Positions 1 to 17,734 of a DNA stretch of 17,734 nt are shown piece after piece. The position numbers and the translations under genes are program-made. How positions within the stretch are numbered: position 1 is the stretch's first letter; every line of letters starts with the position of its first letter. The notes under the pieces were generated by a model. It ran no database searches and was not told where the DNA came from. It was given only the letters and a program-made list of their open reading frames with translations. The DNA comes from a virus, in the UHGV virus genome UHGV-1681308; one strand, 5' to 3'.

Positions 1-119
1 ATGTTGCAACCGTGGGTCACACGGTAAGAGGCGCGGTGATGGTGCTTGTGACATTTGTCACAAGCACCAAGTGATCCGCGAAGACAATCCGGTGCAACGC
101 CGGATGAGATCATGACAGT
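1..119 (+). mobile_element. tnpB: 3' terminus of a TnpB/IStron-type element truncated by the window edge: last 8 codons of tnpB (MLQPWVTR, stop at 25..27) plus omega-RNA scaffold to the right-end boundary
   Basis: Positions 1..119 align to 10192..10310 (3' end of the intact tnpB at 9133..10218 and its downstream region) at roughly 90% identity. Similarity stops abruptly after 119/10310. A 28-nt hairpin at 41..68 differs in stem sequence from the second copy but keeps its pairing. Confidence 0.7.
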
Positions 120-617: not shown

Positions 618-3102
618 CAAGCATGACTTGACTATGCTGCATGTGCTCAGCTCAGAGAAACTGATGCTGAAGTCGCTGAAGGCTGCCAAGGCAGGGCAGG
701 AACTGTTTCCACCGAGACGTGTACCGCATCTTGATCTGCTGTGGCGACACTTCATACGTTTCGCCATACAATCCAAGAAAGAAGGGCACTGGCTGCAGTG
801 GGACAGACAGGCGTATGTAGCTGACTGCCTCGAAGAACTGAAGCAGCGTGACGACATCAGCGACGAATGCAAAGCGCGATTCCAGGCAATATGCGTACAG
901 TATATCGGCGCTGAGCCATTGGACGCCGAGGCAGGCGACAAGCTGCTGCTGGAAGCTGTCAACGAAGCTATCAGAGCACAGATCAGCAGAGCCGTGTACA
1001 ATTCCGAGGCTTTCGACGGCATCAGACAACTGGTCAATAAAGGCGTCGCGCTGAAGGAGTCGTTGGAGACAGCTGACGAGAAGCAGAAATTGTTTGTGAA
1101 TCCGCTGCTTGAAGTCGAGACTTACCTGCATGTGTTGCCTAAGATGCCTACAGGTGTTCGCTACTTCGACAGAGTCACCAACGGCGGCATGTCTGAGGGC
1201 GAGGTAGCTTTGATTGCTGGATTGATGGGCGGTGGAAAGTGTCTTGGGAAAGACACACCCGTTCTCATGTACGACGGAACTGTAAAGAAAGTTCAGGATG
1301 TACGTGTAGGTGATCAGCTTATTGGTATGGACTCTACACCAAGAACAGTAATGTCTTTAGGTAGAGGTCGCAGTGAAATGTATAAAGTCACACCAGTAAA
1401 AGGTGATCCATTTACAGTTAACAGGTATCATATTCTGACAATGATATGCAGTGGTCCTGTAATATGGAAAGGAGTCAGATATAAACCAGGTGATCTTATT
1501 GATATCTGCGTTGAGGATCTGTACAGGCAATCCGACAGCTTTAAGTCACTTCTTAAGGTTATCAGAACAGGAGTGAACTTTAAACCTAAGGAGGAGCCTG
1601 AGTTAGATCCTTATTTTGTAGGTTTGTATTTGGGAGATGGAACGAAAGGAAAAGCCCAGATCACAACTGGTGACACAGAAGTTGTCGACTACTGTGTTAA
1701 GTATATGCAAGGTTTAGGTTTTGCATGTAATGTATCCAAAGATACTAGACATAACTGCGTTTATGTCAGTATAAGTAGAGCCAGCAACAAAACCGAAGGT
1801 GCGTTAACTATAATTCGTAGGAATACGTTTATAGATGATGAGAAGCGAATTTTGGATGTGTATAAGACTGGAAGCAGAGAGATTCGCATGAAAATACTTG
1901 CGGGTCTAGTTGACTCTGATGGATACACGCACCATGGTTTCCATGAGATAGTTACGAAGTATAGTAATCTAGCAGATGATATATGCTTCGTAGCGCGATC
2001 ATTAGGGTATGCAGCATATGTTAAAAAGTGTGAGAAAAAATGCTATAATACAGGTGCTGCAGGTACGTACTATAAGGTCAGTATATCTGGAGATTTCTCA
2101 GACTTACCTGTTTTGTTACCTAGACATAAGTTGTCAAAACGTAAGCAAGTCAAATCTGTGCTGAGGACAGGATATACTATAACCAAATTACCCGAGGATG
2201 AGTATTATGGGTTTACCATAGATGGTGATCACAGATTTCTTCTGGGTGACTTTACAATTACACATAACACAGCAACAGCAATCCAACTGGTAGGCAGTCA
2301 ACTGCTTGTAGGCAATCCAGTAGCATGGTTCACATTCGAGCAGCCGTTCGATCAGGACCTGATGCAGCGTATGGTATCCTTCATCACAGGCTACAGCCTG
2401 GACATCATACGTGGACGGGAATTCAAGGATCTGCCCGAGGACATTCGGGCAAAGTTTCTCACATTGAGCAACCAAATGTCGGACAAACTGATAGCAGCAG
2501 ACTTCTCGAACAACAACATGCTTGACAAGAACGATCCCGAGGATGATGGCTCTGTTTACAGTCTGTGCAAACGACTTGACATATGGGCTGACCAAGGCAA
2601 AGTGCCAAGCTACATCATGTTCGACTGGGTAGGCGCGGCAGTGAAACGCCTAGCGGCTGTACGCAGCATAGACATCGGGCAGATCACCAACTACATTGCG
2701 CTTGCCAATGAGATCATCGACGGTCTCGTACAGCTTGCCAAGCAGTACCATACGCGTGTAATCTTCTTTCATCAGCTGGATCCGGCGATCAAGAAGTCGC
2801 CTCCGTCCAGGAAGCCTACGACTGTGGAGCTTCAGATGATGAAGACGATGTCGAACTACACGCAGTACGCAATGGCAATCGGCAAGCGTGACGAAAATCA
2901 GCGCTGTTGGTTCATCTGCGACAAGTGCCGTAACAGCTACCCGTCAGAATGCGTCATCGAGCTGGATGGTGCACACGCCAAGTTCAATCTTCTGGAAGGA
3001 TATGCACCAGGCCGCAACGGACAGTTCATAAATATCAACGAGCTGCAGGAGGAGCTCAACGACAACAGTGACACGGCAGACAGCTACCAGCCTATAATCT
3101 GA
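604..3102 (+). CDS. intein-containing P-loop ATPase, probably a DnaB-like (SF4) replicative helicase; extein about 489 aa plus intein 343 aa
   Basis: Walker A GLMGGGK is followed immediately by Cys, and the extein resumes with T after the intein (reconstituted GLMGGGKT). C-extein has a Walker B-like YIMFDWV and a DnaB H4-like RVIFFHQLD. Extein size and P-loop position fit DnaB; a terminase or other RecA-fold ATPase is not excluded. Confidence 0.7.
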   Translation: MIPLDKHDLTMLHVLSSEKLMLKSLKAAKAGQELFPPRRVPHLDLLWRHFIRFAIQSKKEGHWLQWDRQAYVADCLEELKQRDDISDECKARFQAICVQYIGAEPLDAEAGDKLLLEAVNEAIRAQISRAVYNSEAFDGIRQLVNKGVALKESLETADEKQKLFVNPLLEVETYLHVLPKMPTGVRYFDRVTNGGMSEGEVALIAGLMGGGKCLGKDTPVLMYDGTVKKVQDVRVGDQLIGMDSTPRTVMSLGRGRSEMYKVTPVKGDPFTVNRYHILTMICSGPVIWKGVRYKPGDLIDICVEDLYRQSDSFKSLLKVIRTGVNFKPKEEPELDPYFVGLYLGDGTKGKAQITTGDTEVVDYCVKYMQGLGFACNVSKDTRHNCVYVSISRASNKTEGALTIIRRNTFIDDEKRILDVYKTGSREIRMKILAGLVDSDGYTHHGFHEIVTKYSNLADDICFVARSLGYAAYVKKCEKKCYNTGAAGTYYKVSISGDFSDLPVLLPRHKLSKRKQVKSVLRTGYTITKLPEDEYYGFTIDGDHRFLLGDFTITHNTATAIQLVGSQLLVGNPVAWFTFEQPFDQDLMQRMVSFITGYSLDIIRGREFKDLPEDIRAKFLTLSNQMSDKLIAADFSNNNMLDKNDPEDDGSVYSLCKRLDIWADQGKVPSYIMFDWVGAAVKRLAAVRSIDIGQITNYIALANEIIDGLVQLAKQYHTRVIFFHQLDPAIKKSPPSRKPTTVELQMMKTMSNYTQYAMAIGKRDENQRCWFICDKCRNSYPSECVIELDGAHAKFNLLEGYAPGRNGQFININELQEELNDNSDTADSYQPII
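1240..2268 (+). mobile_element. intein (343 aa) with LAGLIDADG homing-endonuclease domain, inserted in the Walker A P-loop
   Basis: N-terminal splicing block CLGKDTPVLMYDGT begins with Cys at 1240. Two LAGLIDADG motifs: YFVGLYLGDGTKG and KILAGLVDSDGYTHH. C-terminal block GFTIDGDHRFLLGDFTITHN is followed by the +1 nucleophile Thr at 2269. The intein DNA looks visibly AT-richer than the flanking extein. Confidence 0.85.
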
Positions 3103-3155
3103 CTTGCATTTTGCTGAATCTGTGCTATATTACTGTCCCTAAAAAGGAGACAGAT

Positions 3156-3659
3156 ATGGACAGATTCAGCACAATATTGCAGACAGCCAAGGCAAACTAC
3201 AGCACAACACATGGCGTTATCCTTAACCTGAGAAGCTCGAACAAACGTATACCGATCACGTTATGCGTATCCACAAGGCGCAACAGAAGTAAGATTGTAC
3301 CTACAGACTGCATTGTCTGGAGTAAGGATCGCATACTGTATCAGGGAACATTGACTGGCAAGCGCCTCAGGAACCTTATAGAGAAGTCTGACTTGTGCTG
3401 CATAGAGGTGACGAATGCTGTGGACATGGATTATGGTCCTGGCAAGTATATATGTCTTAACGATAAAGGTACCTGCCAGTGTACATCATGTCTGTGCCAC
3501 AAGCAGGATGACATCAGCTCAGTCCAGTGCTCAGATGCTGTAGCGTACAGAACAAATGCACTGGATGAACTGTGGCAGCAGGGAATAAAAGAATCAAGAA
3601 AAATACTAAAAGCAAAAAGAAAGGAAGCATTGCGTTATGCAACTGCTTTTTCTGGCTGA
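3156..3659 (+). CDS. hypothetical Cys-rich protein
   Basis: ATG at 3156 with AAGGAG at 3144..3149. The longest ORF begins at 3111, but 3156 has the RBS. No motif recognised. Confidence 0.55.
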   Translation: MDRFSTILQTAKANYSTTHGVILNLRSSNKRIPITLCVSTRRNRSKIVPTDCIVWSKDRILYQGTLTGKRLRNLIEKSDLCCIEVTNAVDMDYGPGKYICLNDKGTCQCTSCLCHKQDDISSVQCSDAVAYRTNALDELWQQGIKESRKILKAKRKEALRYATAFSG

Positions 3660-3936
3660 TGCCGGATCAACAATACACGCCTTTAAGAGCCCTGAAGCAT
3701 GTGTCAACCACGTCTTCAGGGTTTTTGCTGACGCCGGTAAAGGGCCGCATATAGAGAAACAATTATTCAGCAACTCAGATGGACTTCATATGGTAACAGT
3801 GAAGTCGTTCGACAAGAAGAAGGTGCTAGAGTTCATCAAGCAGATGCACCTGCACGCCTCATTCATTGTCGTGCTGAGAAACAGAGAACTGGATACAGAG
3901 GAACGGTACACCATCCGTAAGTCGTACTTAATGTGA
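3637..3936 (+). CDS. hypothetical protein (99 aa)
   Basis: ATG at 3637 with AAGGAAG at 3621..3627. Overlaps the preceding gene by 23 nt. Confidence 0.45.
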   Translation: MQLLFLADAGSTIHAFKSPEACVNHVFRVFADAGKGPHIEKQLFSNSDGLHMVTVKSFDKKKVLEFIKQMHLHASFIVVLRNRELDTEERYTIRKSYLM

Positions 3937-3954
3937 ACAAAATAAGGAGTACTG

Positions 3955-5334
3955 ATGCAAAAAGACATTACAAGATCAACACAGACAACATCCTATGTGA
4001 GAACAAGTATAGTAGACAACGAAGCTGCAGGAACTGATTTCCAGCAGGTTTTCCCATATCAGAAGAAGCTGTTCGGTCGCATTCTGTGGCCCAGCAAGGA
4101 CAGCATCGTGCGTATTGTACCCGGCAATGATGGTACACATACATTCCCGCAGGTAATCAACGCAGATACATGGACCACAGACGGTGACCAGACAAATTAC
4201 CTGTCTGACACTTTCTACATGACATACACTCTCAGCGGTTTCGGTGACAGCAAATGCGATATCTGCAGCAACCTGAAGCCAGGCAGTGATGAAGCCGCTA
4301 TGTATCCTGAATCCCCGCTCAATTACTTCTGCAACAAGATACATCGTACCATGCGGTATGTCTTGCAGGGTAAGGGCACGAAAGTCAGGTACAATGACAA
4401 GTGGCGCATGTGGACAGGGCTGCAAGGTACATTGCCGTTCCCGAAACCTACACTCATGTTCCAGGCTATCTGTGTACATCTGTGCGGAAGGGACTGTCTT
4501 AAGGAGGGCGAGGGAACTGATCCGGCACCTTTGTATGGCGTGATAGGCATCAATAACAAGACATCCATTGGCGAGCTCGTCAAGGCGCTTGTCGCACCCA
4601 TGGACAGACGCAGACCCATCGGTACAAACAACAACACATATGGTGCACTTGCAGAGGCGGCAGGCAACGTACTGTATCTGAACAGCGTCATAGACACTCA
4701 AGAGCACAAGTATCTTCAGCCCAGCATTCAGAGTTCGTCTGCACCTGCAAACAGCTGGGAACCTCAGCAGTACGACCTGACAGAGGACCTGTGCAAGCAG
4801 CTGTGGGTTCCCTGGGATAGAGTGCTGAAATACTATACAGTAAAAGAGCAGCTCGAACTTATAGCGTCTGAGTTTGGCGCTGATACTGTGAATTACGTGT
4901 TCTCTCTGTCTCCGCAGTGGGAAGGTCTGCAGATTCCTGAGCGCATTGCCGCTGTAGGTATGGGGCAGTACGCAGAGAATGCTCAGAGAGCTCCTTCATA
5001 TAGTGCCTTTGGACAGAACGTGCAGAAACAGGCATTTGGCAGTGCTCCCAGACAGGCAGCGCCAGCTTCAACGGCAAGTGCTGTTCCTGGGCTCAGCAGG
5101 GCTGCTCAGCCGTCTTTTGCGCTGCCGAATACGACACCTTTAGCCGGTGGCACTGCAAGTCCTGCTGTAAGCATGGACAGCATCAAAGCAGAGCTGGCAA
5201 AGATCAGAGCGGCCGCCAATACTGCACCCAGTGGAGCGGGAGCATTGGCAAGTGCTATGTTGAACGATCTCGAACTGCCGCCTGATGATGACGTCTACGA
5301 AGCTACAGGTGAGGAAAGTCTGGGAATCGAATAA
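3955..5334 (+). CDS. hypothetical protein (459 aa) with a low-complexity Ala/Ser/Pro region and an acidic C-terminal tail; possibly an ssDNA-binding or other replication accessory protein
   Basis: Strong RBS AAGGAG at 3944..3949 and ATG at 3955. C-terminus ...LELPPDDDVYEATGEESLGIE follows a disordered A/S/P-rich segment. Function is guessed from the tail and the replication-gene neighbourhood only. Confidence 0.6.
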   Translation: MQKDITRSTQTTSYVRTSIVDNEAAGTDFQQVFPYQKKLFGRILWPSKDSIVRIVPGNDGTHTFPQVINADTWTTDGDQTNYLSDTFYMTYTLSGFGDSKCDICSNLKPGSDEAAMYPESPLNYFCNKIHRTMRYVLQGKGTKVRYNDKWRMWTGLQGTLPFPKPTLMFQAICVHLCGRDCLKEGEGTDPAPLYGVIGINNKTSIGELVKALVAPMDRRRPIGTNNNTYGALAEAAGNVLYLNSVIDTQEHKYLQPSIQSSSAPANSWEPQQYDLTEDLCKQLWVPWDRVLKYYTVKEQLELIASEFGADTVNYVFSLSPQWEGLQIPERIAAVGMGQYAENAQRAPSYSAFGQNVQKQAFGSAPRQAAPASTASAVPGLSRAAQPSFALPNTTPLAGGTASPAVSMDSIKAELAKIRAAANTAPSGAGALASAMLNDLELPPDDDVYEATGEESLGIE

Positions 5335-5346
5335 CTAAAACATTCA

Positions 5347-5368
5347 GCCGGGTACTTATGTGCCCGGC
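5347..5368 (+). promoter_or_regulatory. GC-rich stem-loop between the upstream stop and the RBS of the first pentapeptide-repeat gene
   Basis: gccgggta (5347..5354) pairs with tgcccggc (5361..5368) around a 6-nt loop. It lies 3 nt upstream of the AAGGA RBS at 5371..5375. No U-tract follows, so it is not a classic intrinsic terminator. Confidence 0.35.
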
Positions 5369-5383
5369 ATAAGGACAAACAAG

Positions 5384-6406
5384 ATGAAAACAAAAAGAGT
5401 ACTGAAGAAAAACGCAATCAAGGCTTACAAAGCCTTCAACAGTGACCTGACTTGCAAAGGCTTCCGGTATGAAGTCGGCAAGGAATACCACCATAAAGGC
5501 AAGCTTGAGCTGTGCGAGGCAGGCTTCCATGCCTGCCCCAAACTGACTGACTGCTTCAATTTTTACCCGTTCGATAAAACTGAAACCAGAGTGGCCGAGG
5601 TGCTCGTCTGGGGTAAAGTCGAGTACGAAGACATAGGTGACAAGCTCTGCGCCTCAAATATCAAGGTAGTCAGAGAACTTACATGGACAGAGGTGTTGTC
5701 TCTGTGTAACAGCGGCTGCCGTAACAGTGGCTACCGTAACAGCGGCTGCCGTAACAGTGGCAACGGTAACAGTGGCAACCGTAACAGTGGCAACCGTAAC
5801 AGTGGCAACCGTAACAGCGGCTACGGTAACAGCGGCGATTGTAACAGTGGCAACTGGAATAGCGGCAACAATAACAGCGGCAATGGTAACATCGGCCACC
5901 GTAACAGCGGCTGCCGTAACAGTGGCAGCTGGAACAGCGGCGACGGTAACAGTGGCTACTTAAATACTCCGGCACAAAAGTATAGCTTTATTTTTAACAA
6001 ACAAGTTGAAAAGTCAGTCTTGGCTCAGATTGAGTTTCCGGAGTTCATGTGCTTCACTTTGTCAAAATGGATACCTGACTTCATAATGTCACAGCAGGAG
6101 AAAAAGCAGCACCCTGAATACGTTACAACAGGCGGTTATCTCAAGAAGTACACATATAAGGAAGCCTTCAGGAAGTCCTTCGAGGAAGCCAGACGCAAAC
6201 CTGACTGGCCCGAACAGCTTGAGAAGCTGAAATCACTGCCTAACTTCGATGCCAAGGTATTCGAGGAGATATCAGGCATCAAATCAAACGCACTTGGAAT
6301 CAGCGCTAAGGAGCTGGCAGACAAGGCAAAGACAGCCATGGAAGTCACAATGGCGGACATAGAGAAGGTATTCGGTTGCAAAATCAAGATTGTAGAGGAG
6401 AAGTGA
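5384..6406 (+). CDS. pentapeptide-repeat protein (N-x-G-x-x type, about 17 pentads) with conserved Cys/His-containing N-terminal domain and conserved C-terminal domain; paralog 1
   Basis: ATG at 5384 with AAGGA at 5371..5375. Central region is NSGCR NSGYR NSGCR NSGNG NSGNR NSGNR NSGNR and so on. N-terminal VLKKNAIKAYKAFNSDLTCKGFRYEVGK...CEAGFHAC and C-terminal KQHPEYVTTGGY...PDWPEQL...LPNFD.KVFEEISGIK are shared with 10835..11797. Confidence 0.8.
   Translation: MKTKRVLKKNAIKAYKAFNSDLTCKGFRYEVGKEYHHKGKLELCEAGFHACPKLTDCFNFYPFDKTETRVAEVLVWGKVEYEDIGDKLCASNIKVVRELTWTEVLSLCNSGCRNSGYRNSGCRNSGNGNSGNRNSGNRNSGNRNSGYGNSGDCNSGNWNSGNNNSGNGNIGHRNSGCRNSGSWNSGDGNSGYLNTPAQKYSFIFNKQVEKSVLAQIEFPEFMCFTLSKWIPDFIMSQQEKKQHPEYVTTGGYLKKYTYKEAFRKSFEEARRKPDWPEQLEKLKSLPNFDAKVFEEISGIKSNALGISAKELADKAKTAMEVTMADIEKVFGCKIKIVEEK
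5706..5957 (+). repeat. about 17 tandem copies of a 15-bp unit (GTAACAGYGGCNNNN) encoding the pentapeptide repeats, including three consecutive identical units
   Basis: Direct reading: cgtaacagtggcaac occurs three times back-to-back around 5765..5815, flanked by near-identical units. The period of 15 nt (5 codons) keeps the frame. Confidence 0.85.
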
Positions 6407-6407
6407 T

Positions 6408-6806
6408 ATGTCAGCAAATGCTTTCTATCCGCACACAGAAAGGGAACAGTTAGCTCCTTTTGCAAACAAACGTGTGTTGGTAACCGGAAAAGTGCAGCAT
6501 ATTGCAGCGTGGATGTCTGGTAAAAGGTGGGGGTTGCGAGCTACGCTGAAGCAGTGCAGAGTCAAGCATGGTAATATTCAAGTAAGTGTCGACCATTTTA
6601 CAGTCAACGTTGGTAAGCAGTTTATTGCCGTTCAAGCTAAAAGGAACACAACAGTATCTTTCTATGCCACAGTTAAGGCGTACCAGCCTGACAAACAGCT
6701 GAAATATGTACCGGATGATGTCAAGATCGCTCTTGGTTTTACGCCAAGAGTACCATCATATGGTATCAAATGGCCTACAAGGGTCGAGGTGCTCCATCGA
6801 TGCTAG
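6408..6806 (+). CDS. hypothetical protein (132 aa)
   Basis: ATG at 6408 is 1 nt after the stop of the preceding gene, with GAGGAG at 6395..6400. No motif recognised. Confidence 0.6.
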   Translation: MSANAFYPHTEREQLAPFANKRVLVTGKVQHIAAWMSGKRWGLRATLKQCRVKHGNIQVSVDHFTVNVGKQFIAVQAKRNTTVSFYATVKAYQPDKQLKYVPDDVKIALGFTPRVPSYGIKWPTRVEVLHRC

Positions 6807-7288
6807 TACGTGTAATTCCAAGGTACCTTATGGTACAGCTGTATAACAAGCATGTAGAAACTGGCGATACGGATGTGTTTCTTGACGGAAACCACTTTAT
6901 TTCCATTTACAGCACCAGAGATATGTCACCTTTGCCGGATCATCCACACGTATTTAAATTGATGTGCGATGATCTGACACTTGCTGATATGCGCATGTTC
7001 ACAGAGGATGGCTGGAATCATGTTACACTGTTTGATGAGGACATGGCAGACAAGATCGCAGCTTTCATAAAGAGCATTCCTGATACATGCAACTCACTTA
7101 TAGTGCACTGTGATGCAGGTGTCTCAAGATCAGGTGCTATAGGAATACTTGCCAACAGATACTTTAACGATGAAGGCAGCGCTGACGACGAGAAGTTCCA
7201 GCATGATTCGATGCCTTGGCTATCGCCAAACTCGCACATATTGATGCTTCTCAGACCCAGACTGCAAAGAAAGGAAACAAATGTCTAA
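6800..7288 (+). CDS. dual-specificity / protein-tyrosine-type (CX5R) phosphatase
   Basis: Active-site signature VHCDAGVSRSGAIG matches the cysteine-phosphatase P-loop (V)HCxAGxxR(S/T)G. Start is uncertain: the longest ORF begins at 6770 without an RBS; ATG 6800 (GAGGTG upstream, overlaps the previous stop) is preferred; ATG 6830 is also possible. Confidence 0.7.
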   Translation: MLVRVIPRYLMVQLYNKHVETGDTDVFLDGNHFISIYSTRDMSPLPDHPHVFKLMCDDLTLADMRMFTEDGWNHVTLFDEDMADKIAAFIKSIPDTCNSLIVHCDAGVSRSGAIGILANRYFNDEGSADDEKFQHDSMPWLSPNSHILMLLRPRLQRKETNV

Positions 7289-8234
7289 CTTAATCAAAAT
7301 CGGACGCAACAACGAACTCAAGAGAGCCACATTGGAGCTGCCTAAATACGGGGAGCTCACGGACGAGCGCGTAGTACAGGAAATGCGCGGCGTATTTGAC
7401 GGATTCGAATACGACCCAGACACTCAGGTCGAGACTGTGTTCAAAACAGTCGAGCAGATCGAGACTTATGCAGCTGAAGTCAGTAAAGAGCTTGAACAGG
7501 CCGACAATGACTTCAAGATGGCAGCAATCACCAATGCCGGTGCCATTGCAGCCAAGCGCTGGCACTTCGGTTTCATGATCAGCAAGTGCCTCAAGGCTTC
7601 CAAGTATGGTGAAGGGGTCGCCAATAAGATTGCAGCCGCAGCCAACATCTCGCTGCCGTATCTTTATCAGTACAGAGCAGTCGGCGACAATCTCAGTATC
7701 AGAGACGCTTACATCCTTGGTATGTATGGCGCTGGCTGGGATTGTATTCGTCAGGTTGCTGCAGTAAATGATCCCGATACAAGACAGAACCTCATTCAGT
7801 ACTTTGTCCAGTCTATCACGGACTGGAACAACAGTGTCGCCAAAGAGCAGGCTAAAGAGGCACTCAAGTCAGCATTGTCCATGCTGAAGCATGGTCCAGC
7901 CGAACTTGATGTTTCCAGTCCGGCAAAGATTGAGACAGCTGTCAACTTTGAATCCGAAGCTCCTGAATTCATGGAAGCAAAGAAACAGCTGCAGAAGCTG
8001 ATGACAGCATGCAGAGGCATTGTCAAAGATAACAAGCTGTCGCCGATGCTGAAGTCCTTTGGCGACTGTTATCTTGCCGATAATGTCCCCGATGCCGAAG
8101 CGCACCTCGATACACTGCACGAAGATGCGACAGCAGCATTGGAGCTTCTGCAGCAGGTTGAGAGTGTGTTGCCGCAGCTCAAGGAAGAAGTCACAAGCTT
8201 GCAGAATATGGGGCTCAGCCATGCAGACAGTTAA
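7281..8234 (+). CDS. hypothetical protein (317 aa)
   Basis: ATG at 7281 with AAAGGA RBS. Protein-like composition, no motif recognised. Confidence 0.6.
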   Translation: MSNLIKIGRNNELKRATLELPKYGELTDERVVQEMRGVFDGFEYDPDTQVETVFKTVEQIETYAAEVSKELEQADNDFKMAAITNAGAIAAKRWHFGFMISKCLKASKYGEGVANKIAAAANISLPYLYQYRAVGDNLSIRDAYILGMYGAGWDCIRQVAAVNDPDTRQNLIQYFVQSITDWNNSVAKEQAKEALKSALSMLKHGPAELDVSSPAKIETAVNFESEAPEFMEAKKQLQKLMTACRGIVKDNKLSPMLKSFGDCYLADNVPDAEAHLDTLHEDATAALELLQQVESVLPQLKEEVTSLQNMGLSHADS

Positions 8235-8460
8235 TCTTGATGTAGATGTGTCGGACCTTATGTGTCCGCACTGCGGTTCTGTCGACAGTGTCAAGTTGAT
8301 CGACCTTGGACCCGAACGAGATGCAGAGGGCGAATACGGTAACGTCAGATGCACCTGCTATGAGTGCGGCTGGTCGACATGTGACATGGATACAGCAGAG
8401 GACGCAGTGTACGCTTTTATCATCGGTCTCGACTGTGATATCAGGCACGACATAATATGA
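8221..8460 (+). CDS. small zinc-ribbon protein (about 79 aa)
   Basis: CPHCG ... CTCYECG four-Cys pattern. The ORF is open from 8059, but that part overlaps the preceding gene, so the start is placed at ATG 8221. Stop overlaps the next start (ATGA). Confidence 0.45.
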   Translation: MQTVNLDVDVSDLMCPHCGSVDSVKLIDLGPERDAEGEYGNVRCTCYECGWSTCDMDTAEDAVYAFIIGLDCDIRHDII

Positions 8461-8657
8461 AACCGATAGGCTACGGGAAGCTCACCAAGTTCCTCAAAGC
8501 CACAGCACCGATATCAAAGCAGTTTGAGAACGAAGTTCTGCGGGATGAGCGTCTCGCAGAACTTTTTTCGTGTGTAGCTGAGGTTGTGCTGCCGAAAGCT
8601 ACAGAACCGCAGAGATGGGCGTTGTGGCAGTGTTTCAAGGGTCTGAAAGGCGTTTAA
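8457..8657 (+). CDS. hypothetical protein (66 aa)
   Basis: ATG at 8457 overlapping the upstream stop. Ends 27 nt before the IStron left end. Confidence 0.45.
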   Translation: MKPIGYGKLTKFLKATAPISKQFENEVLRDERLAELFSCVAEVVLPKATEPQRWALWQCFKGLKGV

Positions 8658-8683
8658 CAACGCCCTTTAACCAGTGATGGCTA

Positions 8684-9110
8684 TCGAACAAGAAAGTGAA
8701 TTGCTAATAGATCCCAAGAGCCTCACGACGCCTGTAACAAGGATCGAAAGAGAAAACAAAGAAGTGAGGATACCGCAAGGCGACAGTAAGCCTAAACGGG
8801 AGTGACAACGGACGTTTAGCAGCCGAGCCATGCGTTCGACAGAACGCCAGCGCATGGAAGGTTCATCGACTATCCCAGATGGGAGTACCCGAGTAGCCAT
8901 GCTGCGACAGCAGCAAAAGTAAGGGGAAGCACTCTGGCTCAGGAATGAGTCAATGATATAGTCAGTGCTTCATGGAAACATGAAGAGTGGTCTCCTATTG
9001 ACACGGAGAAACCTGCTGTTACCCTGGCAAGGTACAGTGAACAGAACCATGGTCTCATTAAATGCAACATTAATTTGACGTTTTGATTTTCTGTATAAGG
9101 ATGTATATTA
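8684..9110 (+). ncRNA. putative group I intron ribozyme core (IStron intron module)
   Basis: R-like element GTTCATCGACTATCC (8861..8875) and S-like element GATATAGTC (8955..8963) can form P7 (GACTA/TAGTC). Several hairpins lie between them and upstream (ctaaacg/cgtttag at 8792..8819, gcgttc-gaca-gaacgc at 8832..8847, gctgc-gaca-gcagc at 8901..8914). No ORF. Not verified by a covariance model. Confidence 0.5.
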
Positions 9111-9132
9111 TCTGTATACAATAAGGAGTGCC

Positions 9133-10218
9133 ATGTACAGAGCCCACAAGATACGCATAGATTGCACAAGAGAGCAGCACAGCCTGTTAATGCAGACTGC
9201 TGGCTGCGCTCGTTATGCGTACAATTGGGGACTCGATAAGTGGGGCAAGATGTACGAAGCCTGGAAGGCTGATGCCTCGCAGGAGAAACCGGACAGATAT
9301 TCTGTAGCCAGACAGTGGACACAGGAGAAACCAGAGTGGGCAAATAAGACATCCAGAAGTCCAGTTGACTACTCTTTTATCAACCTCGGCACCGCCTTCA
9401 AGAACTTCTCAAGGCGCAAAACAAAGTACCCGAAGAAGCACAAGAGGTCACAGGGAATCTCATTCCAAGTGGCACCTGACAAGGCAGCTATAGTTGACAA
9501 CCAACTTAGACTGCCTAACATAGACTACGTGAAGCTCCGAGAGACTCCACGCTTCCAGGGCAAGATAACAGGCTACACAGTTCAGTACATAGCTTCCCAC
9601 TGGTACGTTACAATCGCCTTCGACTGTCCAGACGTCCCAAAAGAAGCACCGGAGTCCGTCGTCGGTATCGACGTAGGACTCCAGCACCCTGCTGTAGCCT
9701 CCGATGGCACCAAACTAGAGCTCCCCATAGAGAAGCTCCAAAAGCTCGAAGTCAAGAAACGTAGAGCACAGCGAGCCCTCAGCAGGAGCAAGAGAAACTC
9801 CAATGCGCGAAAGCGCAAGCGTACCAAACTCCAGCGTATACAACAGAAGATTACCAACATCCGTCAGGATGCAGCCCACAAGTTTACAACTACGGTGAGC
9901 AAAAACCACGCCACTGTAGTCACAGAAGATCTGGACATAAGTGAGCTCCAAAAGAAGGCCCCCGCACGTTCAGTGCGCAGAGCATACAACAGCTCCCTTA
10001 TGGGAACCATTCTTTGGCAGATCTCGTACAAAGCGGTGCACCATATCAAGGCACCAAAGTACTTTCCGAGCACCAAGAGATGCTCAACTTGTGGACATGT
10101 GAAGGAGGCTATGCCTCCGAACGTCAGGACATATCATTGCGACCACTGCGGTACACATCTCGATAGAGATGAGAACGCAGCTCGCAACTTGATGTTGCAA
10201 CCGTGGGTCACACGGTAA
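9133..10218 (+). CDS. tnpB: TnpB (OrfB) RuvC-like RNA-guided nuclease, IS200/IS605 family
   Basis: 361 aa. N-terminus MYRAHKIRIDCTREQHSLL...RYAYNWGL. RuvC-I GIDVGL, RuvC-II VVTEDLD, zinc finger CSTCGH...CDHCG, RuvC-III DRDENAARNL. RBS AAGGAG at 9123..9128. Confidence 0.9.
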   Translation: MYRAHKIRIDCTREQHSLLMQTAGCARYAYNWGLDKWGKMYEAWKADASQEKPDRYSVARQWTQEKPEWANKTSRSPVDYSFINLGTAFKNFSRRKTKYPKKHKRSQGISFQVAPDKAAIVDNQLRLPNIDYVKLRETPRFQGKITGYTVQYIASHWYVTIAFDCPDVPKEAPESVVGIDVGLQHPAVASDGTKLELPIEKLQKLEVKKRRAQRALSRSKRNSNARKRKRTKLQRIQQKITNIRQDAAHKFTTTVSKNHATVVTEDLDISELQKKAPARSVRRAYNSSLMGTILWQISYKAVHHIKAPKYFPSTKRCSTCGHVKEAMPPNVRTYHCDHCGTHLDRDENAARNLMLQPWVTR

Positions 10219-10326
10219 GAGGCGCGGTGATGGTACAGGCAGCATTCGCTGCAGGTACCAGATGATCCGCGAAGACAATCCGGTGTAACGCCGGATGAGA
10301 TCATGACAGTGCGTGTAACACATCGA
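10120..10326 (+). ncRNA. putative TnpB omega RNA (reRNA) scaffold overlapping the tnpB 3' end, plus about 16 nt of flank as guide (gcgtgtaacacatcga)
   Basis: Scaffold conserved with the copy at 1..119, including a hairpin at 10232..10259 with compensatory stem changes and a second conserved hairpin atccggtg-taa-cgccggat. Conservation ends exactly at 10310. The 5' boundary is a guess. Confidence 0.5.
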
Positions 10327-10834
10327 CATATAGTGTCCTGTATCTGCAGAGCAGCAGCAAACCTGCACTACATCCACGAGGGTATCGCACCCTTCTATTG
10401 GGATGGCAACAGGGCAGCTGCTGTGATGAATTGTCTAGGTATAGAACAAGATGTAGCCGCTAAAGGAAAGCGCAGACTGCTAGTGCATTTGATGTGTCTG
10501 CTGGGTGAACCTGCCGGACTGATGTTCAAGGTATCTCTGAGCTGCAACATGCTGGAGTACTTGCTGGGCAAACATTTTGGCGTCTCTTTTCGAAAGTATA
10601 ATGCAGCGGCTGAAGAGATCGCCGGTTGTGTCTTCAAGTGCACAGTAAGTGAGGACACAGCAGGGGCCTATCTAGCGGATTTCAGCGCAACACAAGCTAT
10701 GAAAGACCACAACAGAAAGCTGGCAGAGATGCGCATAAACCCAAGAAAATGTAAAACACCTGCAATGCCATGTGCATCCTGTACTAAAACCAGGGCTCAG
10801 TGCATTTTGGCATGTAAAGTTAAGGACAAACAAA

Positions 10835-11797
10835 ATGAAAACAGAAAAAGTACTGAAGAAAAATGCAATCAAGGCCTATAAAGCCTTCAACAGCGACCTG
10901 ACCTGCAGAGGCTTCCAATATGAAGTCGGTAAGACCTACAGACATATATTCCTAATCCGCTGTTGCGAGTCAGGATTCCATGCTTGTGAAAGGCTGGTTG
11001 ACTGCTTTGGCTACTATGAACCAAACCAAGCAAAAACTCGAATTTGCGAGGTTCTGGTCTGGGGCGATATTCAGAGGCATGATAAAGACACCAAGTTATG
11101 CGCATCCAGAATCCATATTGTCAAAGAGTTGTCCTGGAACAAAGTATGTCGTCTATGCAATAATACCGGCATCGGCAATCAGGGCTTATATAACTCTGGG
11201 AATTATAACAGTGGAAACTCAAATTCCGGTAACTGGAATGCAGGCAATAACAACAAAGGTAAGTACAATTCAGGTGATTGTAACATTGGTTTAGGTAATG
11301 TAGGCACAGGCAATATAGGCAATAATAACTGTGGCCAATATAATTACGGTCATAGGAATTCCGGAAACAATAACATAGGATGCCGCAATGTAGGAAACTA
11401 CAATACGGGCTACTATAATGTCGGTAACTGGAACAAAGGGTCGTTTAATATCGGCTGCTTCAATACAGCAGATGCCATTGTACATATGTTTAACAAGCCT
11501 GTTGTCGGAATCAGTCCATTCGATATTTTAGTCCCAGGTTTCTGCATCTTTGATACGACAGAATGGGTGTCGGCCAGATGTATGACAGATGAAGAAAAGA
11601 AGCAGCACCCTGAGTACGTTACAACAGGAGGATACCAAAAACAATACGCCTACAAGGAAGCCTTCAGGAAGTCCTTCGAGAAGGCAAAGCGACTCCCAGA
11701 TTGGCCCGAACAGCTTAAGAGGCTAAAGGCGCTGCCGAATTTCGATGTAAAGGTATTTGAGGAGATATCAGGTATCAAGGAAGAGGAACTTATGTAA
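10835..11797 (+). CDS. pentapeptide-repeat protein (degenerate N-x-G-x-x repeats), paralog 2 of 5384..6406
   Basis: ATG at 10835 with AAGGA at 10822..10826; the RBS and first ~110 nt are roughly 90% identical to paralog 1. Repeat region GNYNSGNSNSGNWNAGNNNKGKYNSGDCNIGLGNVGTGNIGNNN... The conserved C-terminal domain ends ...FEEISGIKEEELM. Confidence 0.8.
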   Translation: MKTEKVLKKNAIKAYKAFNSDLTCRGFQYEVGKTYRHIFLIRCCESGFHACERLVDCFGYYEPNQAKTRICEVLVWGDIQRHDKDTKLCASRIHIVKELSWNKVCRLCNNTGIGNQGLYNSGNYNSGNSNSGNWNAGNNNKGKYNSGDCNIGLGNVGTGNIGNNNCGQYNYGHRNSGNNNIGCRNVGNYNTGYYNVGNWNKGSFNIGCFNTADAIVHMFNKPVVGISPFDILVPGFCIFDTTEWVSARCMTDEEKKQHPEYVTTGGYQKQYAYKEAFRKSFEKAKRLPDWPEQLKRLKALPNFDVKVFEEISGIKEEELM

Positions 11798-11807
11798 AGA
11801 AAGGAGC

Positions 11808-12149
11808 ATGAAAGTGCAAGTGACAGAACTTGAAACGAGAGAAGTAACAGTGACACGCTACATACTGACTGAGAAGGTCTTCCACCTTGAAGAGTGCCCT
11901 GATTGGGCTCAGTATGCAGCTGTGGATGATGATGGGACTGCCTATTTTTATATGTGTCCACCTAGTCCCAGTGTACATGGGTATAGGTCTGCCTCAGCGT
12001 GTATTCGGATAGACACCGGTTATTCGCTTTTCGACGCCACCGACTGGCAGCACAGCCTTATCGAGCGGCCAAAGAAGGTACTCGAGGTTACCATGTCGGA
12101 CATCGAGAAGAAATATGGATGCAAAGTCAAGATTGTACGGGAGGAGTGA
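11808..12149 (+). CDS. small CPDWA-motif protein carrying the C-terminal tail motif that is fused to paralog 1 (EVTM.DIEK..GCK.KIV.E)
   Basis: RBS AAGGAG at 11801..11806. ATG 11808 is only 1 nt from the RBS, so GTG 11814 may be the true start. Contains EECPDWAQYAAVDDDGTAYFY, similar to 12685..13287. Ends ...EVTMSDIEKKYGCKVKIVREE, compared with ...EVTMADIEKVFGCKIKIVEEK at the end of 5384..6406. Confidence 0.5.
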   Translation: MKVQVTELETREVTVTRYILTEKVFHLEECPDWAQYAAVDDDGTAYFYMCPPSPSVHGYRSASACIRIDTGYSLFDATDWQHSLIERPKKVLEVTMSDIEKKYGCKVKIVREE

Positions 12150-12151
12150 AA

Positions 12152-12688
12152 ATGACTACAAAAGCATTTGTTACAAAATATGGGACTCAGATTAGCGGTG
12201 ATTTGGTCGATGAGCTGTCGCATCATTCAGATGTTCGTAGTTTCGTTCACTGGCTGCTGCATGAATGCGGCTATCTCGAATCCTTGAAGTTTGACTGGCT
12301 GGTTCAGTTGCTCAGAACCAGAGATGCAGACAGCTTGAGGCCCTATGTTGCCGAAGCTGTACTCAAATCCTGGCAGCAGCCAGTGTCCATCGGTATTCCG
12401 TCATCACTGTCGCCTGAAGCTGAAGCCTTGCTTACGGCAATGATAAATGACCATGAACATACGCAAGATGTGTATGCGCATGCAGTGAACATGAAAGAGA
12501 TCTCTGTGCAGAATGTACAGGTAGCTTATTGCGCCTCACCAGATATCAAGCGTTTGCTGTGGCAAATCCTGCACGGTATTATTGTCTGGAAATCTCTTGA
12601 TTACCGGTTATCAGAAACGTATGTAACACAGCAGGTGCTCAAATATATGCAACCAGTTGTATCTTTGTTTGAGGAGGACCTGGAATGA
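12152..12688 (+). CDS. hypothetical protein (178 aa)
   Basis: ATG at 12152 with GAGGAG at 12141..12146. The longer ORF from 11999 lacks an RBS. Confidence 0.55.
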   Translation: MTTKAFVTKYGTQISGDLVDELSHHSDVRSFVHWLLHECGYLESLKFDWLVQLLRTRDADSLRPYVAEAVLKSWQQPVSIGIPSSLSPEAEALLTAMINDHEHTQDVYAHAVNMKEISVQNVQVAYCASPDIKRLLWQILHGIIVWKSLDYRLSETYVTQQVLKYMQPVVSLFEEDLE

Positions 12689-13287
12689 CTGTAGACGATT
12701 TGGTTATGTTCGATACCAAGAAGCTTCTTGACTTCTTTAAGATAGATCAGTGCCCTGACTGGGCAGAGTGGGTCGCTGTAGATAGTGATGGAACGGTCTG
12801 TTATTATTCTGCTGAACCTACTATACTTAATACTTATAAGGATGAATGGAGGTGTGAAACAGTTAGACATAACTTTCGACCTGTCAGGATAAATGGCAAT
12901 AATATTAAAATTACTGTCGAGGACTGGACAAAAGCGAAAGTCAAGAGGCCTCCTACAGGCAATGAAATGTTTCTTGGTAAGTGCAGAAACATTTATGTCC
13001 ACATGAAAGACTCTAAGTATGTAGTTGCTTTCGAGTGCCGCACAGAGGATACCTATGACAACGATAGCTATTATTTGGAATTGACAGTCGAATTGGCAGC
13101 AGAGATATTCTCGAGAGACTTAGGGCATATCATTGCTGAGTGGCTGGGTAAGGATGTGTCTGTAGAAACCGAAGGTTCACATATTCGCAGTGCTCTTCAG
13201 TCCAGTATACCTGAAGCTTTCTCAGCCGCAGTTACTGATGTTCGTCTGTCATCAGGGCCAGGCACGAAAGGTCTGTGCAAAATATGA
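12685..13287 (+). CDS. CPDWA-motif protein (200 aa), paralogous domain to 11808..12149
   Basis: ATG at 12685 with GAGGAGG at 12671..12677. Motif DQCPDWAEWVAVDSDGTVCYY near the N-terminus. AT-richer than its neighbours. Confidence 0.6.
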   Translation: MTVDDLVMFDTKKLLDFFKIDQCPDWAEWVAVDSDGTVCYYSAEPTILNTYKDEWRCETVRHNFRPVRINGNNIKITVEDWTKAKVKRPPTGNEMFLGKCRNIYVHMKDSKYVVAFECRTEDTYDNDSYYLELTVELAAEIFSRDLGHIIAEWLGKDVSVETEGSHIRSALQSSIPEAFSAAVTDVRLSSGPGTKGLCKI

Positions 13288-16169: not shown

Positions 16170-17734
16170 ATGCTGGAAACAAAAGTCATGTTCAATGCCA
16201 CAGAGCTCACAATCAAAGTGTCTGTGTGGGCACGGGGCGACCCGTTCCCTGCTATTGGGCATGCTGTAGGTATAGACACAGAAACCGAACTTATTACGGA
16301 CGCCGAGCTTACGCCGCCATTGGTTGTACTCGGCGTTTTCAATCCTGCCGACATGACTTGCTACCAGATAGCATGGAGTGATGCACAGTACTTCATGCAG
16401 GAGCTGCTTAAGCGTGACTGCAAGCTGTACTTCGCCAATGCAGGGTTCGACTACTTCGAGCTGGAGAGTGATGAGCTTCGGGATGCGGTCAGCAATGACC
16501 GTCTCGTAGACTTGCTCATCAGAGCTCCGCTTAAAGAGATCGCCACTATAGGGTACATCAGAACGCACAGCCTGAAGGACGCCTGCCAATGGCATCTCAA
16601 TTACGAGATGGACAAACATGAGGACGAAGGCGACCAGGCAGCTCGTGTCACGTTCCGCAGGAACAAAGACATCACAGATGAGCAGCGCATTTACCTGGCA
16701 ATCGACTGCGCGGCTACTTATTACGGGTGCGAGGCGATTGGTCCTCAGGCGACAGAGTGTACACATACACGCGGTCAGATAGTCCTGTATCATATCAGCA
16801 AGAACGGTTTTCCGTACGACCCGTACATGTTCGACTACTGCGAGAAGCTGCTGCAGCAGCATATGGATCAGTATCGTGCAGAGCTCATCACGTACGGGTA
16901 TCCGGATCCGTACAAGAAAGATATGCCCACTGAAATCAAGCAGCTGCAGGACGGCTGGCCTATGTTCAGGGACGCCTGGTTCGCTGCGCATATCAAAGAA
17001 AAGTACCAGTTCGAGGACTCGCTGCCAGGCAAGAGCACAGTAAAGCGCATACTGCTGTACGGCACTGCGTATATGCAGCACGGTACAGATAAAGGCACTC
17101 TGGCGCGGGTGTTCGCAGCATTGCTGCTGCAGGACAAGAACCTGTCCAAAAAGGAACAGGCTGCATATGACCAGCTGGTGGAGGAGCACGACTTCCTGGA
17201 TGCCTGCAATGGTATCGGCAAGAAGGAGGTTTGGCCGACGCTGCTGGTCGCGTGGATGCGTGCCGAGATGGACGGCAAGGACATCGCTGGCATATGGCAG
17301 GCAGTGGACGATGCGGTGCAGGACCATCCGCAATGGTTCTGTACTGAGGAGCCTGTCAAGCCCAAGGCATTCATGCAGGACCACCTGCGGGAACTGCAGG
17401 AAAAGTACCCTGGACTGGAGTTCGACAAGACGCTTAAGTCAGGTGAGCTGAAGTGCTCAAAGAAGGACGCGTGGAAGCTGGCGGATGCGGGGGTGAACGA
17501 TCCGTTGCTGACCGCGTACGTGAACTTTGGTCATGTGCAAAAGTACAAGTCGTCGTTCACGAACAGGGAATACCTCAGGAGCGACGGCAGAGTAAGGTGC
17601 CGCTTTGGCATCGTGGAGAGCGGTCGGTTTGGCCGCTTCACACCGCGAGGTGTGTCGAACAAGAAAGTGAATTGCTGGAACACCTTAACGGGTAACGCCG
17701 AAGGCAATCAGCAGCCGAGCCTTGTATCGAGAGA
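16170..17734 (+). CDS. family-A DNA polymerase, N-terminal part (3'-5' exonuclease domain plus start of polymerase domain); runs off the window and is probably interrupted by an IStron from about 17655
   Basis: Strong RBS TAAGGAGG at 16158..16165. Exo I VGIDTETE, Exo II NAGFDYFEL, Exo III YLAIDCAATYY. The frame stays open to the window end; the track omits it only because it has no stop in the window. From 17655 the DNA matches the IStron 5' end, so sequence beyond about 17654 is probably intron, not exon. Confidence 0.65.
   Translation, partial: MLETKVMFNATELTIKVSVWARGDPFPAIGHAVGIDTETELITDAELTPPLVVLGVFNPADMTCYQIAWSDAQYFMQELLKRDCKLYFANAGFDYFELESDELRDAVSNDRLVDLLIRAPLKEIATIGYIRTHSLKDACQWHLNYEMDKHEDEGDQAARVTFRRNKDITDEQRIYLAIDCAATYYGCEAIGPQATECTHTRGQIVLYHISKNGFPYDPYMFDYCEKLLQQHMDQYRAELITYGYPDPYKKDMPTEIKQLQDGWPMFRDAWFAAHIKEKYQFEDSLPGKSTVKRILLYGTAYMQHGTDKGTLARVFAALLLQDKNLSKKEQAAYDQLVEEHDFLDACNGIGKKEVWPTLLVAWMRAEMDGKDIAGIWQAVDDAVQDHPQWFCTEEPVKPKAFMQDHLRELQEKYPGLEFDKTLKSGELKCSKKDAWKLADAGVNDPLLTAYVNFGHVQKYKSSFTNREYLRSDGRVRCRFGIVESGRFGRFTPRGVSNKKVNCWNTLTGNAEGNQQPSLVSR
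17655..17734 (+). mobile_element. 5' terminus of a second IStron-like element (group I intron module) inside the polymerase gene; truncated by the window edge
   Basis: 17655..17676 is identical (22/22) to the left end at 8684..8705. The downstream block agcagccgagcc and the taacggg segment are shared with 8792..8830. This copy lacks an ~85-nt segment present at 8706..8790. Confidence 0.5.

Follow-up and report, generated by a model that had tools for sequence, protein, structure and literature searches.

The 192-codon open frame that stands without a start of its own behind an IStron in virus genome UHGV-1681308 is, with a probability of about 0.88, the downstream part of an interrupted phage gene: positions 10310 to 10881 form the 3′ exon, the 5′ exon lies at 8457 to 8652, and the IStron at 8653 to 10309 separates the two. 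The window, by which we mean the whole 17,734-nucleotide stretch of DNA that was analyzed, is a complete metagenomic contig (ENA ERZ773229 NODE_1285), and both exons, the element with all of its parts, and the gene that follows lie on its plus strand. The 5′ exon opens with an ATG at 8457 that overlaps the stop of an upstream 79-amino-acid (aa) gene as ATGA, and its last four bases, GGCG (8649 to 8652), are the target of the element and the 5′ strand of the P1 helix; the 3′ exon runs to a stop at 10879 to 10881, and its first ~16 to 20 nt may also be a guide/target segment for TnpB. The spliced coding sequence would have 768 nt, that is, 255 codons plus the stop, with the junction (marked here and below by a slash) AAA GGC G/TG CGT GTA (K G V R V). 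In DNA, this predicted junction reads ...CTGAAAGGCG/TGCGTGTAACAC..., and the peptide across it reads ...FKGLKGVRVTHR....

An open frame without a start

Frame 1 is open from 10303 to 10881 (192 codons), an event with a chance probability of ~1.2e-5 per frame given the local base composition, and the remaining five frames hold 3 to 15 stops each in 10310 to 10834. The original prediction drew attention to this frame and to its missing start, and the observation is real except in one detail. No RBS-led start is present: 15 in-frame ATG, GTG, and TTG codons lie in 10303 to 10881, none of them with a convincing and properly spaced Shine-Dalgarno motif, the sole partial exception being TTG 10561, with GGAG 7 nt upstream. 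The detail that fails is that the only ATG would lie inside the conserved element end; in-frame ATGs are also found at 10426, 10492, 10522, 10549, 10699, 10729, and 10765. The conserved right end stops at 10309/10310, and ATG 10303 is a chance codon within it. Gene callers report a 66-aa ORF (stop TAA at 8655 to 8657, inside the intron) and a 192-aa ORF from ATG 10303; neither is a real protein, and the real product has 255 aa. We propose that the frame is open for 192 codons without its own start or RBS because it is a 3′ exon that is joined by splicing to a 5′ exon. Among the three readings that had been offered (a decaying or noncanonically initiated gene, a 3′ exon with its 5′ exon elsewhere, and noncoding RNA), the second is the correct one: the 5′ exon is found in the 66-codon ORF 8457 to 8657 just 5′ of the IStron, and uninterrupted homologues cover both parts.

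The arrangement originally described for another IStron copy, at the start of the window, is as stated, with a right end that stops at G118 and an AGGAG-led ATG at 141 (gene 141 to 617, 158 aa). The 22 nt after G118 are readable as a short 3′ exon, TA CTA TTT AAC AGG AGC ACA CAA TGA, whose stop would overlap the start of that gene as ATGA. This first copy may split a gene near its end, with the remainder of the gene off the contig.

Uninterrupted homologues

As a query for homologues, ORF 8457 to 8654 (66 codons) was fused to the open frame and searched in a collection of 5.8 billion proteins. P0001 (241 aa, 335 member sequences) is 92% identical to the fused translation at 93% query coverage, and P0003 and P0004 (238 aa each) are 53% and 47% identical. 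The homologue alignment crosses the junction gap-free as ...FKGLKG(D)V/RVTHRH..., with P0001 reading KDV/RVTHR. An exhaustive HMMER search with P0001 returned 67 clusters (at 50% identity), almost all of 230 to 250 aa and with both exon parts covered; the matches span from near residue 1 to ~234, at identities down to 22%. Since uninterrupted homologues extend over both parts, the region is the downstream part of the gene begun at 8457 to 8652. Intron-less alleles read aaagatgtg/cgtgtaac in L001, the contig that encodes P0001, and aaaggtgtt/cgtgtaac in L002 and L003.

At the far end of the exon, where the window reads GTT AAG GAC AAA CAA AAT GAA, L002 has TGA in place of CAA, and L001 has another frame ending in ATGA. 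Relative to L002, the product is therefore 14 codons longer and overlaps the next gene by 47 nt (region 10818 to 10881). The displaced stop lies past the last conserved residues (C..LA), and the same sequence is present in a contig from a second sample (L097).

Element boundaries and target pairing

The element is an IStron of 1657 nt, a group I intron carrying tnpB, at 8653 to 10309; it starts with TTTAACAA and the internal guide sequence CGCC (8661 to 8664) and ends in ...CATGACAG, the terminal G being 10309. Its boundaries were set from three empty sites (L001, L002, and L003), 16 right ends, and nine type I left ends, with other copies taken from IMG/VR contigs and related ENA contigs. The 16 right-end sequences belong to two sequence classes and have 15 distinct 3′ flanks; all of them end in ...CATGACAG, and the bases that follow vary. 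At all nine sites, the type I left ends begin (C/T)TTAA(C/A)AA and continue with a 4-nt guide, with which the 4-nt 5′ flank pairs every time (GAGG/CCUC at four sites, GGAG/CUCC at three, and GGCG/CGCC at two, the window and L097). There is no target duplication, and the 3′ flanks are variable across the 15 distinct sites. Under the same boundary rule, the fused flanks of six complete elements are open across every junction, with 71 to 99 open codons upstream of it in five of the six and 19 in the remaining one (L021b). Based on these shared ends, the element is therefore 8653 to 10309, with G8652 as the last base of the 5′ exon and T10310 as the first base of the 3′ exon.

Two other placements were considered. 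The canonical boundaries 8654/10311 (U8654, G10311; GTT/CGT) fit the empty sites equally well, match L002, and give the same protein; they are ruled out only by comparison across copies, given that right ends differ in the dinucleotide that follows ACAG (tg, ta, aa, at, cg, ag, cc, ac) and that the copies at nine different sites share (C/T)T as the first two bases of the element. A 5′ splice site after T8655 was dropped because the extra Leu would be a one-residue insertion in the homologue alignment. With the boundaries adopted here, P1 lacks a U-G wobble where cleavage would occur, G8652 being paired with C8661 and U8653, the first base of the intron, lying opposite A8660; the chemistry of 5′ splice-site choice would thus be atypical. 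A P10 pairing with the 3′ exon was sought, and none that was convincing was found.

Parts of the intron

The group I ribozyme core, P1 to P9, occupies 8642 to 8985, with the P2 hairpin at 8671 to 8680 and P7 strands GACUA/UAGUC. It matches Rfam RF00028 over the full model at 31.9 bits (E 1.1e-5), a score under the gathering threshold of 50, which is why the default search gave no hit. When 20 related ribozymes are aligned, compensatory changes are seen in 31 of 46 consensus pairs, with no variation in the P7 strands. Downstream of the core, the 5′ strand of a long-range helix, CATGGTCTCAT (9048 to 9058), pairs at 11 of 11 positions with 10295 to 10305, which loops out tnpB and brings the end of the helix to four bases 5′ of the 3′ splice site. 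The right-end classes differ compensatorily at two positions of this helix (GTCTC/GAGAT versus GACTT/AAGTT). RNA duplexfold over long segments gave sprawling, uninformative duplexes, and a targeted helix test was used instead, in which 11 pairs were reached in 8 of 2000 shuffles.

The looped-out tnpB (9133 to 10218) encodes 361 aa with the Pfam domains OrfB_IS605, HTH_OrfB_IS605, and Cas12f1-like_TNB. It matches ISDra2 TnpB (structures 8bf8 and 8exa) over its full length (E 9e-41), and the RuvC D/E/D motifs (GIDVG, TED, DRDENA) are kept. A tnpA of either type was found neither in the element nor elsewhere in the window; with tnpB alone, the element is an ORF B-only, nonautonomous IStron, as described for CsISt1.

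The structured right end (10192 to 10309), an omega-RNA-like scaffold, contains a terminal hairpin at 10278 to 10296 and the 3′ strand of the long-range helix. Positions 10192 to 10310 are 87% identical to window positions 1 to 119, the right end of another copy. The consensus fold of eight copies has conserved hairpins and covariation in the central hairpin, as expected of a TnpB guide-RNA scaffold. The last hairpin and the long-range helix share two bases. In CboIStron, splicing competes with guide-RNA formation (10.1101/2023.11.20.567912), and by analogy the two-base overlap would fit such a competition here.

A model for splicing and guide formation

Given the split-gene architecture, boundaries placed to the nucleotide, conserved ribozyme and exons, and an intact TnpB, we infer that the gene is restored by splicing. 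In this model, the gene would be transcribed together with its upstream neighbors and translated from ATG 8457, at the ATGA overlap with the stop of the preceding gene. The ribozyme would fold in the pre-mRNA, with GGCG (8649 to 8652) and the internal guide CGCC (8661 to 8664) forming P1, and the 11-bp helix 9048-9058/10295-10305 would loop out tnpB and carry the terminal ...ACAG (G10309) to the catalytic core. Two transesterifications would then join G8652 to U10310, giving the junction AAA GGC G/UG CGU GUA and an ORF of 255 codons. In unspliced transcripts, the right end and the first ~16 to 20 nt of the exon would form a TnpB guide RNA directed against intron-less alleles. In TnpB systems, the ~16 to 20 nt past the right end serve as the guide (10.1101/2023.11.20.567912), and we infer the guide role of 10310 to ~10329 from that analogy.

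Alternative readings

Could the insertion have inactivated the gene, with splicing lost and the 3′ part left as a pseudogene too young to have acquired stops? Splicing is itself a prediction here, the Rfam score is sub-threshold, and several related elements carry a truncated tnpB of 231 to 242 aa, which indicates that decay occurs in the family. However, the ribozyme core is conserved across copies with compensatory changes, the long-range helix is intact, and in all six complete type I elements the host frame remains open. Both exons are open in the occupied allele, which three samples carry at ~99% identity; ERZ773229 and its relatives ERZ27262565 and ERZ19666096 contain only DNA. The PolA-like gene on this contig harbors a related intron, which the phage could hardly tolerate there without splicing. 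Compared with the intron-less allele L001, exon 2 has 33 synonymous and 12 nonsynonymous codon changes (14, 2, and 34 differences at codon positions 1, 2, and 3), and exon 1 has 8 synonymous versus 5 nonsynonymous changes. The suggestion of a decaying gene is not supported, given an intact frame, substitutions that are mostly synonymous, and the retention of all conserved family positions, including the C-terminal Cys4 motif. We regard inactivation as unlikely.

Is the region instead a stand-alone gene of ~150 aa with an internal start, for example at GTG 10423 or ATG 10426, and is the upstream 66-aa ORF then a separate gene? In-frame ATG and GTG codons are available, and the 158-aa protein of gene 141 to 617 is of similar size, with a weak local match (KY.AAA.E, E 0.04). 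However, the internal starts have no convincing Shine-Dalgarno motif, and the 67 homologous clusters, almost all of ~230 to 250 aa, match the upstream ORF contiguously with their N-terminal ~66 residues. Moreover, codons 10310 to 10425 are conserved at the protein level (H86, I88, E90, G91, W97, G99), and residues 1 to 100 belong to the one compact fold seen in the AlphaFold2 (AF2) model. An ordinary gene with an internal GTG or ATG start, which the original prediction had named as the finding that would overturn it, was looked for and not found, and we consider this reading very improbable.

That the region is mainly noncoding RNA, such as a TnpB guide RNA with a long 3′ extension or the leader of the next gene, is scarcely credible: it does lie directly 3′ of the omega-RNA-like right end, and its first ~16 to 20 nt may be guide by analogy with TnpB systems (10.1101/2023.11.20.567912), which is the most that this suggestion may retain, but the rest is contradicted by the coding signal. 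Rfam gives a single chance-level match within 10310 to 10834 (E 8.8) and no other, substitutions are most frequent at third codon positions, homologous proteins are found down to 22% identity, and no promoter or terminator pattern was found inside the region.

The predicted product and its neighborhood

Pfam, PHROGs, and a PDB sequence profile gave no family for the exon or for the spliced protein. The AlphaFold2 model, built on a 54-sequence alignment, has a pLDDT of 96.2 and a pTM of 0.91 and consists of helices at residues 6 to 88, a beta barrel with one helix at 101 to 191, and a long helix at 194 to 208, followed by a C-terminal stretch with conserved Cys213, 220, 223, and 230 (the Cys4 motif). 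The model is confident and places a helical domain at the N terminus, an OB-like barrel after it, and the Cys4 motif at the C terminus. Foldseek against the PDB gave weak matches alone (E about 0.02), mostly to OB-fold single-strand-binding proteins (PrgE, RPA70N, RMI1/2, PriB, Rim1, and LEF-3 are among the weak matches). Based on these fold matches and on the neighborhood, the product is possibly a single-strand-binding protein of a replication/recombination module. For annotation, this means that the 255-aa product belongs to an uncharacterized family of ~240 aa, with at least 67 clusters at 50% identity, in phage replication/recombination modules.

The contig carries a phage-like replication module, with an 832-aa primase/helicase-like protein, a UvsX-like recombinase, and a PolA-like ORF, identified by eye, that runs past the contig end. 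A blastn search of 8300 to 11000 against the GenBank phage collection gave no match. Three IStron-type elements lie within the 17.7 kb of the contig, one of them in the DNA polymerase gene. This third intron is represented by a type II left end at 17620 to 17734, which splits the PolA-like ORF at ...VESGR(F) and has a P1 of GCGGUC/GGCCGC with a U-G pair and a P2 of CACC-GCGA-GGUG. The same PolA site is also occupied in IMG/VR loci L030, L056, and L092; in all three, CATGACAG was searched for within 3 kb as the right end of this intron and was not found.

The gene that follows the 3′ exon (10835 to 11797) encodes DUF7666 and pentapeptide repeats and has AAGGA 8 nt 5′ of its ATG at 10835. It is one of two paralogues, the other lying at 5360 to 6406, 5.4 kb apart and with blocks that are 77 to 86% identical. 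The first paralogue has a 15-nt tandem periodicity over 5676 to 6005 that encodes GN-rich repeats.

Related elements in sister phages

The gene with the OB-like fold is intact at the window's site in L002 and L003, and another IStron lies ~120 nt downstream of that site (L002 6303 to 7472 and L003 1074 to 2243, equivalent to window 10428/10438), with a type II left end, a class alpha right end, and a tnpB reduced to a 153-aa fragment. A truncated gene call, P0005, ends in translated intron sequence (SAIEQESELL). L002 also carries a type I IStron with target GAGG at 3979 to 5644 (window 8098/8099), which splits the homologue of the 317-aa gene 7281 to 8234; the equivalent site is empty in the window and in L001, where it reads gaagcg/cacctc.

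L097 is contig k119_88059 (ERZ27262565), of which 2400 to 7086 aligns with window 8649 to 13218. In it, a formate/nitrite-transporter-like gene ending ...TTGGCG is joined to the IStron; its mismatches to the window cluster in the ribozyme half (62 in 8653 to 9183), five more lie at 9978 to 10005, close to the tnpB 3′ end, and from 10006 the two are 100% identical over 3.2 kb. The same sample holds a second contig that carries the true 5′ exon and ends inside the IStron. The join is most likely an assembly join through the repeat, and, although it would place the 3′ exon after another 5′ flank, we did not count it as evidence; genuine recombination between copies is less likely.

In L021 (10871 to 12540), L069 (8615 to 10283), and L076 (2616 to 4284), tnpB is shortened, with longest ORFs of 231 to 242 aa, and the ribozyme and ends are conserved; the intron seems to outlive the nuclease in these sister IStrons. 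On the minus strand of L027 (~2500 to 2870), an ORF-less type II intron apparently lies in a tRNA-like anticodon loop, the 5′ half ending ...GCGGACUCUG/ and the 3′ half having a T arm and GCCA; it comes directly after an ARAGORN tRNA-Met at 2871 to 2946.

Across the copies, type I or type II left ends occur with right-end class alpha, and type I left ends occur with class beta. Is this lineage of IStrons retargetable and modular, with its ribozyme and TnpB-guide halves shuffled, its 4-nt target and guide switched together, and the OB-fold gene invaded independently twice in sister phages? We offer this as a tentative and rather doubtful idea. Should one TnpB lineage indeed serve several targets, its target-adjacent motif would have to be relaxed or evolve fast; otherwise, the element would reach new sites by a route other than TnpA/TnpB, for example by reverse splicing or by recombination between copies. 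The relatives provide natural pairs of occupied and empty sites, together with target/guide covariation, that could serve to examine how introns with TnpB select their targets and switch between them. Target/guide switching and module shuffling are the sole aspects of the system that might repay more work.

Comparison with known systems

IStrons are group I introns fused to IS200/IS605- or IS607-type elements, and C. botulinum phages are also listed among their hosts (PMC4227781). In that scheme, group A is defined by T-rich pentanucleotide targets, a canonical U-G pair, and the 3′ end TCAG, and group B is defined by GG-ending targets (AGGG, TGGG, GAGG), a 5′ exon ending in G, and the 3′ end CGG; splicing after G has been proven experimentally for BcISt1, and the closing stem of group B is a long AU-rich IR of 15 to 34 bp (PMC4227781).

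We compared the element with the group B IStrons (BcISt1 of Bacillus cereus and CboIStron/CbISt1-4 of Clostridium botulinum, including phages c-st and D-1873) as published (PMC4227781, 10.1101/2023.11.20.567912). Like them, it has a group I ribozyme at the 5′ side, tnpB (ORF B) in a 3′ loop, and a structured right end; it uses a short GG-containing target (GAGG is on the published list) that pairs with the internal guide; and its 5′ exon ends in G, not U. Further shared features are the absence of target duplication, variable 3′ flanks, intron boundaries that coincide with the element boundaries so that splicing would restore the ORF, and members in phages. Unlike group B, it ends in ...CATGACAG (ACAG) rather than ...CGG, has no tnpA, and closes with a compositionally balanced helix of 11 bp; its first intron base is U (C in most sister copies), a P1 U-G pair cannot be drawn, and the window target GGCG is absent from the published targets. 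Among solved structures, its TnpB is closest to that of the IS605-type ISDra2.

The resemblance to group A (CdISt1 of Clostridioides difficile) lies in the architecture, in the ...CAG terminus (TCAG in group A), and in the short, balanced 'IR' stem of 6 to 10 bp that encloses the ORF, which is comparable to the 11-bp helix here. In contrast, group A has T-rich pentanucleotide targets (TTGAT, ATTAT, TTTAT), the canonical U-G pair, and an IS200-type tnpA, and the 5′ flank here is GGCG. By description, the closest published end pattern is that of CsISt1 of Clostridium sporogenes, which is ORF B-only, inserts after AG, a site ending in G, and ends in CAG (PMC4227781); CsISt1 is known from a bacterial chromosome, whereas the element described here is phage-borne. 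The element thus follows the group B rule on its 5′ side and the CsISt1/group A pattern (...CAG) on its 3′ side.

Finally, the arrangement recalls the classical phage group I introns (T4 td and nrdB, Twort orf142, and the SPO1 DNA polymerase intron), self-splicing introns that also split genes of replication or nucleotide metabolism and leave a start-less downstream ORF, but the passenger gene of the present element encodes TnpB, a nuclease guided by RNA, and theirs encode protein-guided homing endonucleases. In total, this is an ordinary IStron, at most an intermediate variant, that agrees with the published IStron model, and an open frame lacking a start is what one would expect to find behind such an element.
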